Of a stretch of 64,000 nt of DNA, positions 26,895 through 30,635 are shown piece by piece. The position numbers were made by a program, and so were the translations under genes. This stretch comes from a virus (taxonomy: Duplodnaviria > Heunggongvirae > Uroviricota > Caudoviricetes). Numbering within the stretch: the stretch's first letter is position 1; each line of letters begins with the position of its first letter. The notes under the pieces are model-generated. The model made no database searches. It was not told the DNA's origin and was given only the letters and a program-made list of their open reading frames with translations. The stretch is from IMG/VR virus record IMGVR_UViG_3300001373_000069. The stretch is one strand, 5' to 3'.

Positions 26895-27821
26895 TTACTC
26901 CTTTTGCTTAAACACCAGCGATAATAGTACACTAGCAGTTAATACCCCAAGAGTTATAAATAGTGATAAATCAGAGGAAATATGTACCCAATGACCAATA
27001 AGCATCTTTAATCCTATAAATGATAGAACAAGCCCGATACCGTATTTCAGTAACCAGAATTTATCCATAACACTTAATAGAACAAAATACAAGGCTCTAA
27101 GACCTAGTATAGCCATAACATTGCTTGAATACAGGATGAAAGGATCTCTACTAACTCCAAATGCTGCTGGAATAGAATCCACAGCAAATACAATATCAGT
27201 AGTTTCAATCATAATAAGGACCACAAACAATACAGTAGGCACTAAGATAGTTGTAGGGTTAATAGCGGTACCATTTTTAAAGCGTTTAACAAAGAATTTA
27301 CTTCCTTCGTATTCCGGGCTTATCTTAAAATTCCGCTGAAACCACTTAACCACAACATTCTCATGAACTTCTGGCGCATCATCTTGCGAGACAATGATCT
27401 TTATACCAGAATAAACTAAAAAGGCACCAAATAAATAAAGAATCCATTCGAAAGTATCAACAATAGCTACACCACCAAGAATGAATGCTCCCCTAAATAT
27501 AATAGCTCCTAAGATACCCCAAAATAAACAGCGATGCTGAATCTTAGCTGGAGTAGCAAAGTACGTAAAGATGAGGGAGATAACAAATAGATTGTCTACG
27601 CTAAGAGACTTTTCCAGAACATAGGCAGTGAACCATTGACTACCCAACTCCGGTCCATAATGATGGTATACATACACACCAAATAGACAAGATATAGCAA
27701 CCCAGAATACACTCCAACTCACAGCTTCTTTAAACGAGAAAGCATGAGCTTTTCTATTGAACACACCAAGGTCGAGGGCAAGCAATACACTTACCATCAA
27801 TAAGAATAAAATCCAATTCAT
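26895..27821 (-). CDS. terC: TerC-family integral membrane protein
   Basis: Polytopic membrane protein with TerC signature 'EKSLSVDNLFVISLIF'. Confidence 0.7.
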   Translation of the reverse strand: MNWILFLLMVSVLLALDLGVFNRKAHAFSFKEAVSWSVFWVAISCLFGVYVYHHYGPELGSQWFTAYVLEKSLSVDNLFVISLIFTYFATPAKIQHRCLFWGILGAIIFRGAFILGGVAIVDTFEWILYLFGAFLVYSGIKIIVSQDDAPEVHENVVVKWFQRNFKISPEYEGSKFFVKRFKNGTAINPTTILVPTVLFVVLIMIETTDIVFAVDSIPAAFGVSRDPFILYSSNVMAILGLRALYFVLLSVMDKFWLLKYGIGLVLSFIGLKMLIGHWVHISSDLSLFITLGVLTASVLLSLVFKQKE

Positions 27822-28633
27822 TTACTTAATAGATTTTTAATGTAATTGAGGTTATTTTGATAATCAGGTATCTTATGATAACTGTTTCCAAGAGCAAGAT
27901 GATAGATCGATTCAACAAGTTTAAGTCGTTGGAAGTTAATGAATACCACAAAATTTAAGTGATCATAATTCAAAATATACTTCACTATTCGTGTATTTAA
28001 TACGAAGGCCTCATTCTTGATGATTTTATCGAGATCTAGCAAGTTCTTTACAAAGGCATAGTTTAGGGTATTTTCTACCTTTGGATCGACTGTAGGGTCT
28101 GTAAGCTCCGCAAAATAAGCGAATATCCTATCATTCTCTACGCCGTACCCATCCAACATACGCTCGATGACACGTTCATGACTACCTGTGATTTTAATAT
28201 CATCCAAGAACACAAGAGTCTTGCCTTCGATGAACTTAGTATCCATATGGAAACCATCGTTCTGTATTAGCTTGAATCTTTGTTCTGCACTTAATTCACC
28301 GTAATCTTCTTTGTATGTAATAGTTCTGTGTATCTTTGTTTCTTCAACCACCGGTAAATCACATTGAACTAAGATTTGATTCAGTCTTTGAACAAAGTAA
28401 TCCTTCATAGCGAAGGTAGCCGTTGGAATAAAACAATAAGGGCTGGATAGCACAACAATTTGACCACGTAATTGTCTGGTAATAATGTACTTCCAAGCAA
28501 ATGCTTCGGCTAGTGCAAGACCAAACTCACGCGATGTATCTTTACATCCAAATTTAAACTTACTATATGATTCAGCACTAAAAGGAAACTTCGTTGCAGA
28601 AGTCACCTGATGTAATGAAAAGGTTTCTTTCAC
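27818..28633 (-). CDS. Phosphoribosyltransferase (PRTase)-like protein
   Basis: PRPP-binding-like 'LVFLDDIKITGSHE'; embedded in ter-type cluster. Confidence 0.5.
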   Translation of the reverse strand: MKETFSLHQVTSATKFPFSAESYSKFKFGCKDTSREFGLALAEAFAWKYIITRQLRGQIVVLSSPYCFIPTATFAMKDYFVQRLNQILVQCDLPVVEETKIHRTITYKEDYGELSAEQRFKLIQNDGFHMDTKFIEGKTLVFLDDIKITGSHERVIERMLDGYGVENDRIFAYFAELTDPTVDPKVENTLNYAFVKNLLDLDKIIKNEAFVLNTRIVKYILNYDHLNFVVFINFQRLKLVESIYHLALGNSYHKIPDYQNNLNYIKNLLSK

Positions 28634-29301
28634 AAGAGATCTTTTATCGATTTATTGTTTGTGTTTATTTGATAATACGGTATTCCTACCGATACAGAAG
28701 CACCATCAGCGATAGTATTATCACCTACATGTAGAATATCTCCATTTAAGATGTGAGTACGATATTTCGAATAAGTATTAATCCTACCAAACATTTTGAT
28801 ATGAGGTTTACTAAACCCAGTTTGATCTGAGTAGATAGTTTCATCGAATATAGCAAGAATACCCATCTCCCCAAGACATTGCTCCAGGGTTTCCCCTAAG
28901 ATAAACCCGGTATTAGATAAAATACTAATGGTTGATCCTTCCTCGAATAATTGTTCAAGTGTGGCTTTGGTGTTAGCATCATAGAAGCTAGGCTTAAACT
29001 CAAGAAATAGCTTTTGGATCTGTACAACCACCATTGAAACAATATCAATGTTAGCATCGACCCCCAATCTACTCAAGATTCTTCCAACCATATGTTGTAC
29101 CGGTACATGAATACCAGTAGTCTCACATAGTTTATTAGCTGCTCTATCTTCTTGCTTTATAATCTCACGTATCGTATCAAATCGCTCACCATTAGGATTG
29201 TATAAGTCGAAAAACATCTGATCCCTCTGCTCCTTGAACGAGGGGTTTGATTTGATAAGTGTTAACCACAAATCAAAAGAGTAATGTTTATACCGACGCA
29301 T
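28630..29301 (-). CDS. HAD-like hydrolase (tentative)
   Basis: N-terminal 'YSFDLWLTLI' resembles HAD motif I but the second Asp is absent; position between PRTase and vWA genes as in Ter biosynthetic modules. Confidence 0.35.
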   Translation of the reverse strand: MRRYKHYSFDLWLTLIKSNPSFKEQRDQMFFDLYNPNGERFDTIREIIKQEDRAANKLCETTGIHVPVQHMVGRILSRLGVDANIDIVSMVVVQIQKLFLEFKPSFYDANTKATLEQLFEEGSTISILSNTGFILGETLEQCLGEMGILAIFDETIYSDQTGFSKPHIKMFGRINTYSKYRTHILNGDILHVGDNTIADGASVSVGIPYYQINTNNKSIKDLL

Positions 29302-29302
29302 A

Positions 29303-29971
29303 TTAGTCCGTTAGAGCACCAATGAACACATCTTCAATTGAACAATTATTCATTGCTGAATAGTCTTTACAGTCGACAATATCGAACTTAGCTCCTTCAG
29401 AAGTTAAGTCATCATCAAGCTTCTGCAGAAACCTGCTAGCGTCTGAATTCTGTCCAACCTGAACAAATGTGATACCGACTTCATCACGACCCTGGATACA
29501 TTCGGTAGTCTTCTTAATTACTTCGATAACACCAAATTTATCATCTGGTTCACCATCAGTCAATACAATGATAATCATTGGTTTAACTTTGATACTGAAA
29601 TCAATAGTAAATGGTCGTTTACCAATACCAAAGAAACCACTAGAAGCTTCTTTACGACGATTTAAGAATGGCTGTAAAGCTTTCTTCAATGCATCTGTAA
29701 GGTTAGTTGTACTGCCTGGCTCCTGTGTACGGAATATCTCATCGACTTTAGCAGAAGTAACATTAGTATAATGAGTAATGGCACTATCAAATAAGATTAC
29801 ATCGATACCATCAGAGTCATATGTTTCACACTTCTGAGCAATTACTTTAGCCCATTCTTTTTCTTGGTTCCATCTAGAAAGTCCTCCTGGACAGTCTGTG
29901 AAGTTAGTACTACCACTCTTATCAATTAAGATAACGTAGTCATACTTCGTAAAATCGATTTTACTTTCCAT
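29303..29971 (-). CDS. vWA domain protein (TerY-like)
   Basis: MIDAS 'ILIDKSGSTNF' near N-terminus. Confidence 0.65.
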   Translation of the reverse strand: MESKIDFTKYDYVILIDKSGSTNFTDCPGGLSRWNQEKEWAKVIAQKCETYDSDGIDVILFDSAITHYTNVTSAKVDEIFRTQEPGSTTNLTDALKKALQPFLNRRKEASSGFFGIGKRPFTIDFSIKVKPMIIIVLTDGEPDDKFGVIEVIKKTTECIQGRDEVGITFVQVGQNSDASRFLQKLDDDLTSEGAKFDIVDCKDYSAMNNCSIEDVFIGALTD

Positions 29972-30008
29972 AATAAAAAGAAAGGCTGTATAGTTACCTA
30001 CACAGCCT
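29971..30008 (-). terminator. Rho-independent terminator (AGGCTGTGTAGGTAACTATACAGCCT + U-run) after terD
   Basis: Inverted repeat 29984..30007 and plus-strand A-run 29971..29983. Confidence 0.55.
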
Positions 30009-30035
30009 TTATTTTACATGTTTGTTAGCCCGGTA

Positions 30036-30635
30036 CTAAATGTACAGAGCAGCAATTTCGTTGATGTTACCATTTTTACCTTCACCGATAGCCTGGAATT
30101 TCCATTCACCATCTTTCAGATACAATTTACCCATAACCATTCCGTTGAATGCGGAGTAGTCTTCAGATAGGTCGAATTTCATGATTTCAGCTTTGGTATC
30201 CCAATCATAAACACGCACGAATGCATTGTTTACCTGACCAAAGTTCTGATTTCCACGATCTTTTGCTTGGTAGATGTTAACACAGATAATGATCTGATCA
30301 ACACCGGCAGCCAATTTTGCAAAGTCAACCAAAATGGTTTCATCATCACCATCCCCTGCTCCAGTGAGGTTATCACCTGAATGAGCAATAGCTCCGGCAA
30401 GGATAGCTGGTTTACCGTCAGTTTTCGGAGATCCGAAGTAACAGATATGTCCAGGAGCATCAACCAGTTTACCACCGGTCAGTCCAAGAGCAAATCCATC
30501 AAGGTCATAGGCACTATCAGCACCACTATTAACATCCCAACCTAAACCAATTGCAGCTATTTTCAAGCCAGGGTTAGATTTTGTTAAATCAACACGTTCA
30601 CCTTTAGTAAGGTTCAAAGAAACATTCACTGTCAT
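30036..30635 (-). CDS. terD: TerD-family stress protein
   Basis: 'GERVDLTK..KIAAIGLGWDVNS..DLDGFALGLTGGKLV..HSGDNLTG' TerD domain hallmarks. Confidence 0.8.
   Translation of the reverse strand: MTVNVSLNLTKGERVDLTKSNPGLKIAAIGLGWDVNSGADSAYDLDGFALGLTGGKLVDAPGHICYFGSPKTDGKPAILAGAIAHSGDNLTGAGDGDDETILVDFAKLAAGVDQIIICVNIYQAKDRGNQNFGQVNNAFVRVYDWDTKAEIMKFDLSEDYSAFNGMVMGKLYLKDGEWKFQAIGEGKNGNINEIAALYI

Follow-up and report, generated by a model that had tools for sequence, protein, structure and literature searches.

Why would a tailed phage carry a complete set of Ter genes, and what could their products do in an infected cell? The question is raised by a 64,000-nucleotide stretch of the viral record IMGVR_UViG_3300001373_000069 (Caudoviricetes), hereafter the window, in which positions 26,895 to 30,635 encode TerD, a von Willebrand factor A (vWA) protein, a HAD-superfamily hydrolase, a phosphoribosyltransferase (PRTase) and TerC on the minus strand. 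A first-pass annotation had proposed a Ter-type cluster with PRTase and HAD genes inside a phage, an idea already present in Iyer et al. 2021, and this interpretation is supported by domains, residues and folds; it is close to certain that the cluster is a phage-borne Ter module. Bacteria, plasmids and phages commonly carry Ter loci, for which links to tellurite and metal resistance, to virulence and to the inhibition of phages have been described. Phage Ter clusters are already known from the literature and from hundreds of database records, and the present one is not a new kind of system. It adds an uncultivated lineage, probably infecting Bacteroidota, to the phages known to carry Ter systems, and its interest lies in its compact, minimal architecture and in the chemistry of its HAD and PRTase_3 enzymes, the former with a tryptophan in place of a catalytic aspartate, rather than in the mere presence of Ter genes in a phage. 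Five genes under purifying selection with a clear expression architecture offer a minimal natural Ter module that is amenable to expression and dissection.

Components of the phage Ter module

The limits of the five open reading frames (ORFs), all on the minus strand, are exactly those given by the first-pass annotation:

30036-30635, minus strand: TerD, 199 aa, Ca2+-binding beta-sandwich protein; monocistronic, between two hairpins
29303-29971, minus strand: vWA protein, 222 aa; first gene of a four-gene operon
28630-29301, minus strand: HAD-superfamily hydrolase, 223 aa; subfamily IA, helical cap
27818-28633, minus strand: PRTase_3, ComF-like type I phosphoribosyltransferase, 271 aa; C-terminal helical domain; GTG start
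26895-27821, minus strand: TerC-family membrane protein of the Alx subfamily, 308 aa; putative exporter of Mn2+ or another divalent cation; ATG start

The features by which Ter systems are recognized (Anantharaman et al. 2012, Iyer et al. 2021), namely the TerD motif, a TerC gene in the neighbourhood and an adjacent PRTase_3-HAD pair, are all present here. Two outcomes had been named beforehand as grounds for abandoning the interpretation: failure of the PRTase and HAD assignments, and occurrence of TerC and TerD as a lone pair. Neither was found, and TerC and TerD flank biosynthetic genes both in the window and in related phages.

The PRTase matches the Pfam family PRTase_3 (PF15610) over the entire profile (E 1.5e-86, positions 1-264 of 264). 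In its loop for phosphoribosyl pyrophosphate (PRPP), LVFLDDIKITGSHE, residues D144, D145, I148, G150, H152 and E153 are invariant in 58 homologues, and T149 and S151 are conserved in at least 90% of the sequences. No PDB sequence was hit by the PRTase_3 profile, even with the threshold relaxed to E<=1. The solved folds closest to the AlphaFold model built from the 58 homologues (predicted local distance difference test, pLDDT, 90; predicted TM score 0.86) are those of hypoxanthine-guanine(-xanthine) PRTases, PyrR and ComF, with E values down to 2e-5 and TM scores of 0.3-0.5, which are lowered by an extra C-terminal helical domain at residues ~185-270. By its sequence and predicted structure, the protein has both the PRPP loop and the fold of a type I phosphoribosyltransferase, in agreement with the initial assignment.

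The HAD enzyme matches the Pfam model HAD_2 (E 1.1e-5, 26.1 bits against a cut-off of 23.8) and the phage family phrog_14393 (E 3.7e-28). Its core motifs comprise the nucleophile D10, motif II S129-N130-T131, motif III K165 and motif IV G193-D194-N195...D199, and residues S8, F9, D10, L11, W12, T14, S129, N130, T131, K165, P166, G193, D194, N195 and D199 are invariant in 54 sequences. With Foldseek, the AlphaFold model (pLDDT 95) aligned to 288 PDB chains at E<=1e-3, of which those listed have the HAD fold, the best being 2OM6 (TM 0.75). The conserved motifs I-IV and the model together make the assignment secure at the level of the fold. Motif I, SFDLWLT, departs from the canonical DxDx(T/V) pattern in that W12 occupies the Asp+2 position, and distant versions from proteobacterial phages read D[LV]W; 2OM6, an archaeal protein without an assigned function, has the same tryptophan at Asp+2 (FDVWNT). 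The residue at Asp+2 is the general acid/base of HAD phosphatases. The HAD fold is thus secure, but the earlier label of phosphatase is not.

TerC matches PF03741 (E 1.8e-51) and belongs to the NCBIfam Alx subfamily TIGR03718, which it matches at 374.3 bits against a cut-off of 246.4, bearing out its initial assignment; a search of PDB sequences returned nothing useful, with one chance hit at E 0.66. The nearest known relative in function is Escherichia coli Alx (YgjT), a riboswitch-controlled Mn2+ exporter of the TerC family. The phage protein is 42% identical to Salmonella Alx and keeps E86, D92, E213, D216 and D222 (Alx numbering), all invariant in the alignment with Salmonella Alx/YgjT; in E. 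coli Alx, the export of Mn2+ requires these five acidic residues of the transmembrane segments (PMC10197570). However, transport by the phage protein is putative, its expression is coupled to the PRTase gene, and an Rfam scan of the whole window at the gathering threshold found no yybP-ykoY Mn2+ riboswitch and no other riboswitch near TerC.

TerD, likewise assigned correctly at first sight, is supported by PF02342 (E 2.7e-56) and by sequence matches to the TerD structures 3IBZ (E 3e-44) and 2KXT (E 2e-38) in the PDB. It contains the motif GDNLTGAGDGDDE, of the GDNxTGxGDGDDE type, which is conserved across homologues and which, going by the Klebsiella TerD structure, we take to be a Ca2+ site.

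The vWA protein matches only the generic Pfam models VWA (E 5.5e-9) and VWA_2, and its metal-ion-dependent adhesion site (MIDAS) is intact, with D17, S19, S21, T89 and D139 invariant in 33 homologues. PF10138, the model for the vWA domain in the TerF C terminus (cut-off 29.4 bits), is matched by two homologues that are 47-54% identical to the window protein (P0127, 30.9 bits; P0132, 33.8 bits), whereas the window protein itself falls below the cut-off, as does a 69%-identical homologue (P0124) with only 17 bits. By transitive homology the protein is thus probably TerF-type rather than TerY-like, the label it had been given at first; no PADLOC model matches it, and neither the five products nor the neighbouring proteins scanned gave a match to the PP2C or kinase families that partner TerY in TerY-P systems.

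Gene coupling and expression of the module

Nearly every gene between 1 and 52 kb of the window lies on the minus strand, so the shared orientation of the Ter genes is uninformative, and their organization has to be read from overlaps and hairpins. Stop and start codons overlap at two junctions, as GTGA between HAD and PRTase and as ATGA between PRTase and TerC, and only 1 nt separates the vWA stop from the HAD start. The genes for vWA, HAD, PRTase and TerC therefore form a translationally coupled operon. The description of five overlapping genes is accurate for these four, which overlap or abut, but not for TerD, which is set apart from the vWA gene by 64 nt. Three hairpins, all on the minus strand, delimit the two units:

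30674-30688, minus strand: weak hairpin with T-run 5' of the TerD unit; 6-bp stem, TTTTTTATTA tail; -6.7 kcal/mol, z -1.8
29972-30010 (hairpin 30010-29981), minus strand: strong hairpin with U-run in the TerD-vWA gap; 13-bp stem, GUAA loop
26826-26853 (hairpin 26853-26833), minus strand: weak hairpin with T-run after TerC; 7-bp stem, CTTTTTTATT tail; -7.9 kcal/mol, z -1.85

The hairpin in the TerD-vWA gap is by far the strongest (-20.8 kcal/mol, z -6.05; none of 200 shuffled sequences folds as well). A 13-bp hairpin with a U-run but a different sequence occupies the same gap in two related contigs (L012 and L055), and this conservation of shape rather than sequence points to a functional terminator or attenuator. 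The hairpins 5' of TerD and 3' of TerC have z scores of about -1.8; the former, which lies just downstream of an upstream gene of 103 aa and marks the 5' boundary of the TerD unit, is not significant by itself, and the latter, ~40 nt past the TerC stop codon, is the probable end of the operon. Terminators at 29971..30008 and 30664..30688 had been described as bracketing the cluster; both hairpins exist, but they bracket TerD alone.

The U-rich tail of the terminator between TerD and vWA starts 9 nt upstream of the vWA ATG and runs straight into it. This spacing leaves no room for a promoter, and the four-gene operon would therefore be transcribed by read-through. With a strong terminator after TerD and read-through beyond it, TerD should far exceed the other four proteins in abundance. 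A scan for sigma-70 promoters gave 25 sites against 25.7 expected from shuffled sequence, and no promoter was called.

Source phage

The phage nature of the element, as first proposed, is supported by a large terminase (phrog_6681, E 1.8e-57), an rIIA-like gene, a sigma-like factor, exonucleases and a helicase in the window, together with group I introns and at least 15 tRNAs (15 by ARAGORN; 17 Rfam tRNA matches). Relatives are found on IMG/VR viral contigs, and the contigs that carry relatives reach 178 kb in length. The large terminase shares only 24-28% identity with the terminases of crAss-like Bacteroides phages, and a megablast search of GenBank phages with the Ter cluster gave no match, from which it follows that the phage has no close cultivated relative. 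The lineage is thus uncultivated, and its host is probably a member of the Bacteroidota.

Conservation, distribution and origin

The order TerD-vWA-HAD-PRTase-TerC is the same in a 31.6-kb sister contig (L012; PRTase 92% identical) and in a 178-kb contig from an ENA assembly labelled MUNK22 (L055; vWA 69% identical). Compared with the sister contig, all five genes have ratios of nonsynonymous to synonymous substitution rates (dN/dS) of 0.07-0.23 at dS 0.8-1.7 (TerC 0.07, PRTase 0.07, TerD 0.13, vWA 0.23), and all five are therefore under purifying selection.

All five proteins match PHROG families, so phage homologues already exist. Searches of GenBank phages by tblastn returned 157 records for the PRTase, 201 for TerD and 180 for TerC, all below 60% identity, and the GenBank phage versions are only about 32-45% identical to the window proteins. 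Carriers include phAPEC8-like E. coli phages, Rhizobium T4-like phages, Klebsiella phages, and jumbo phages of Brevundimonas, Caulobacter and Xanthomonas.

A census of IMG/VR, using hidden Markov models built from the sequences collected in this analysis and neighbourhoods of 10 kb, recovered 39 loci with PRTase_3. The HAD gene lies directly upstream of the PRTase gene in 35 of them, while within 10 kb of the PRTase TerD was found at 22 loci, TerC at 22, TelA at 12, TerF-type vWA at nine and a macro domain at six. All five components of the window occur together at eight loci, and at 16 the neighbourhood of 10 kb contains no TerC, TerD, vWA or TelA, with the HAD gene still adjacent to the PRTase in most. 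Across phage loci, TerC is of the Alx-like type in 10 cases and of a short type in 12. At one 15.5-kb locus without TerC, from a related phage (L013), a gene of the Na+/Ca2+-exchanger family, CaCA, follows directly after TerD-vWA-TerD (9357-10505), where the cluster of the window ends in TerC.

The closest cellular homologues of both enzymes are all from Bacteroidota: those of the PRTase come from Mucilaginibacter, Pedobacter, Arcicella and a Sphingobacterium metagenome-assembled genome (55-59% identity), and those of the HAD enzyme from Pedobacter, Chitinophaga, Emticicia and Dyadobacter (about 40%). The Bacteroidota loci examined have the operon order HAD-PRTase-TerD-TerD-TelA-DUF8226-TerC. 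The Ter operons of Mucilaginibacter terrenus (L011), Pedobacter psychroterrae (L057) and Arcicella (L058) share with the phage the overlapping HAD-PRTase adjacency and the association with TerD and TerC. The phage, however, carries a single upstream TerD in place of the pair, has gained a vWA gene, probably of the TerF type, and lacks TelA, DUF8226 and the neighbouring Fur regulator. The phage cluster is thus a shortened, re-ordered Bacteroidota Ter operon with an added vWA gene. A mosaic origin, in which Bacteroidota enzymes had been joined by a foreign Alx-type TerC (that of Mucilaginibacter being short), was dropped because a Pedobacter Ter operon has an Alx-like TerC.

Two neighbouring genes were considered as further members of the module. 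A DUF2828/DUF7788 protein of 528 aa (23297-24883, minus strand; phrog_850, 'RNA-binding protein') is encoded 2 kb downstream of TerC and has no relative among PDB sequences; its family, present also in L003, L013, L047 and L053, directly follows HAD-PRTase_3 in the Xanthomonas jumbo phage XaC1 and occurs near Ter genes in several related contigs. An SPFH/Band-7 lipoprotein (31551-32429, minus strand; phrog_200) is encoded upstream of TerD and holds the same position in two relatives (L012 and L047), in one of which the PRTase is only 29% identical. The two families lie within 10 kb at only 2 and 1 of the 39 IMG/VR loci, respectively, and are kept here as context.

Comparison with known Ter systems

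Ter systems that include the PRTase and HAD genes have been described in jumbo phages and certain related smaller tailed phages, for which a role in preventing superinfection and in xenobiotic tolerance was proposed (Iyer et al. 2021, Viruses 13:63, PMC7824862). The Klebsiella phage phiKp34 carries terC, a terF-type vWA gene, two terD genes and telA (DNA Res 2021, PMC8386662). In comparison with these systems, which include those of Acinetobacter phage vB_AbaM_ME3 and Caulobacter jumbo phages, the window shows the same set of PRTase, HAD, TerD and TerC genes and a vWA gene that is probably TerF-type in a large tailed phage, and the same role, exclusion of rival phages and stress tolerance, can be proposed for it. 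It differs in belonging to another, uncultivated lineage with Bacteroidota-type Ter genes, and in its compact gene order, the absence of TelA from the cluster and the insulation of TerD by a terminator.

The enterobacterial terZABCDEF/terWXY loci (IncHI2 plasmid R478, E. coli O157, Klebsiella pneumoniae) likewise combine TerC with TerD-domain proteins and confer phage inhibition and resistance to metals and tellurite. Deletion of terC in K. pneumoniae reduced resistance to Zn, Mn and tellurite and enlarged phage plaques (PMC12054061), and a 1995 transposon study, as cited in the same paper, reported that phage inhibition was weakened or lost upon insertion in terC, terD and terZ. TerA, TerB, TerZ, TerE, TerW, TerX and TerY were unmatched in the window proteins scanned, a result obtained without gene-by-gene comparison, and the phage TerC differs from the enterobacterial system in being of the Alx type.

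Proposed function and alternative explanations

On balance, though by no means securely, the module probably brings about a Ter-type change in the membrane and ion state of the infected cell, linked to a riboside-like metabolite, the likeliest benefit being superinfection exclusion or protection of the cell until lysis. In this scheme, PRTase_3 would transfer 5-phosphoribose from PRPP to a base-like acceptor in the infected cell, and the adjacent HAD enzyme would convert the product into a riboside-like small molecule. The abundant Ca2+-binding TerD and the MIDAS-containing vWA protein could act as sensors of divalent cations or ligands and as scaffolds at the inner face of the membrane, while TerC would export Mn2+ or a related divalent cation. 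As a net result, the infected cell would hinder superinfecting rivals or be protected until lysis. The link to cations is drawn from the five Alx Mn2+-export residues conserved in TerC, from the CaCA gene at L013 and from the roughly equal use of Alx-like and short TerC types by phage loci, and the exclusion role is favoured because bacterial ter loci inhibit phages and because Iyer et al. 2021 proposed the same role.

Several observations weigh against this proposal. The cluster is matched by none of the PADLOC defence models, what ter proteins do in phages is without experimental proof according to the Privateer paper (PMC7881722), and our literature search found no paper that characterizes the product of a PRTase_3-HAD pair in any organism. 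The designation of the HAD enzyme as a phosphatase is unproven because an invariant tryptophan replaces the general acid at Asp+2, and the 16 IMG/VR loci without membrane or sensor genes suggest that the two enzymes may work without the membrane components. In addition, the substitution of TerC by CaCA is seen at a single locus, and read-through past the TerD terminator is deduced from spacing.

Part of the same evidence would also fit a purely auxiliary physiological role, in which the module serves divalent-cation balance or the metalation of exported proteins and takes no part in conflict between phages. Such a role, which we regard as a serious but unlikely contender, would account well for an Alx-type TerC with its five Mn2+-export residues, for the conserved Ca2+ motif of TerD, for the CaCA antiporter in the membrane-protein position at one locus (L013) and for the SPFH membrane-scaffold lipoprotein upstream in three related phages, and TerC proteins are reported to metalate exported enzymes in Bacillus subtilis (PMC10550928). 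However, it leaves unexplained why the PRTase-HAD pair is the most constant element (35 of 39 loci), it does not account for the phage-inhibition phenotypes of bacterial ter loci, and the Rfam scan detected neither a Mn2+ riboswitch nor any other metal-sensing element. If the enzyme pair is instead placed at the centre, the module could be a counter-defence or nucleotide-pool device, in which HAD and PRTase_3 make or destroy a ribose-containing molecule to act against immune signalling or the depletion of NAD+ or nucleotides, with TerD and TerC as accessories. The 16 loci with no Ter membrane or sensor gene within 10 kb are in line with this explanation, as are the macro-domain genes found near six of the 39 loci and directly after HAD-PRTase in a phAPEC8-like E. 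coli phage, the NAD+-salvage genes (NAMPT, NMNAT, Nudix) that lie 5-10 kb away in this lineage and adjoin the PRTase in L009 and L021, and a marginal PADLOC similarity of the PRTase to Shosta ShosT (E 0.0024). We nevertheless consider it very unlikely, as no known anti-defence family matches, the bacterial homologues reside in Ter operons rather than in defence or anti-defence contexts, and the proximity of the NAD genes may reflect only a common region for auxiliary genes.

The acceptor of the phosphoribosyl group might alternatively be something other than a nucleobase, such as an envelope glycan, a lipid or a protein, whose ribosylation by PRPP transfer and HAD dephosphorylation could alter phage receptors. 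A precedent exists in PRPP transfer followed by HAD dephosphorylation on glycans (PMC11127046), where the bipartite ribofuranosyltransferases join a glycan PRTase (gPRT) to a HAD-family PRP domain (PDB 7SHG). The two-step scheme is the same and the HAD folds are similar, with TM 0.68-0.72 for the alignment of the phage model to the 7SHG PRP domain and E 1e-4 for the match of the HAD profile to it. In the phage, by contrast, the two activities reside on separate proteins and the PRTase is of type I, its model resembling soluble purine PRTases, PyrR and ComF with no glycan PRTase among the top 50 fold matches; 7SHG ranks only 15-17 among generic HAD hits, the HAD enzyme lacks the acid at Asp+2, and neither glycosyltransferase or export genes nor a context of polysaccharide synthesis is found nearby. 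Envelope ribosylation is accordingly the most improbable of the functional explanations. That the cluster has no function, being recent host cargo or a chance grouping, is effectively refuted: the closest cellular homologues in Bacteroidota are consistent with host capture, but the low dN/dS values, the gene order kept across phage contigs differing by 8-32% in protein from the sister contig and even in the L055 lineage, whose vWA and HAD proteins differ by about 30-40%, the translational coupling of the genes and the recurrence of the module in dozens of unrelated phages all speak against it.

In phAPEC8-like E. coli phages (JohannJBalmer, L002, 5316-9065; also L039, L042, L045, L048 and L054), a macro-domain gene comes after HAD-PRTase_3, with an Alx-like TerC and TelA 1-2 kb beyond it. 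The position of the macro-domain gene after HAD-PRTase_3 hints at a metabolite related to ADP-ribose or ribose-phosphate. A broader reading, which we hold to be distinctly unlikely, is that PRTase_3 and the tryptophan-bearing HAD enzyme, the constant core of phage Ter modules, make a riboside or phosphoriboside, possibly on a non-nucleobase acceptor. Phages would employ this product, either diffusible or close to the membrane, for signalling or as an effector; the abundant TerD would be its receptor, and exchangeable cation transporters (Alx-type TerC, short TerC or CaCA) would form the output. If true, viruses would be using Ter to signal through a small molecule, and it would not be a metal-resistance system.

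Other features of the phage genome

Genes for NAD+ salvage lie downstream of the module and comprise a NAMPT gene (21045-22447, minus strand) and an NMNAT-like gene (19945-21048). The NAMPT gene is frameshifted relative to the intact homologue of the sister contig L012: residues 2-236 of the latter align up to ~21743 and residues 246-474 align in another frame from ~21740, with ~9 codons missing. In L055, the NAMPT gene is interrupted instead by an ORF of 208 aa. A second vWA system of this phage is formed by an adjacent pair on the minus strand, a MoxR-type AAA+ ATPase (6426-7547) and a vWA protein (5372-6445).

A tRNA-like sequence of 145 nt (31319-31463, minus strand), with ~70 nt inserted after the anticodon arm, and a neighbouring tRNA-Val (31467-31540) lie immediately upstream of the SPFH-TerD region, and ARAGORN also reported a tRNA with a 2-nt 'anticodon' at 32709-32781 (minus strand). 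Rfam also gives four matches to group I introns on the minus strand, at 4022-4248, 14608-14867, 15580-15842 and 33605-33884, with scores that equal or barely exceed the gathering score; the first of them adjoins a homing-endonuclease-like ORF (3220-4002). In addition, a hatchet ribozyme (RF02678) at 49859-49997 on the minus strand matches the full-length model with 77 bits against a gathering score of 51.

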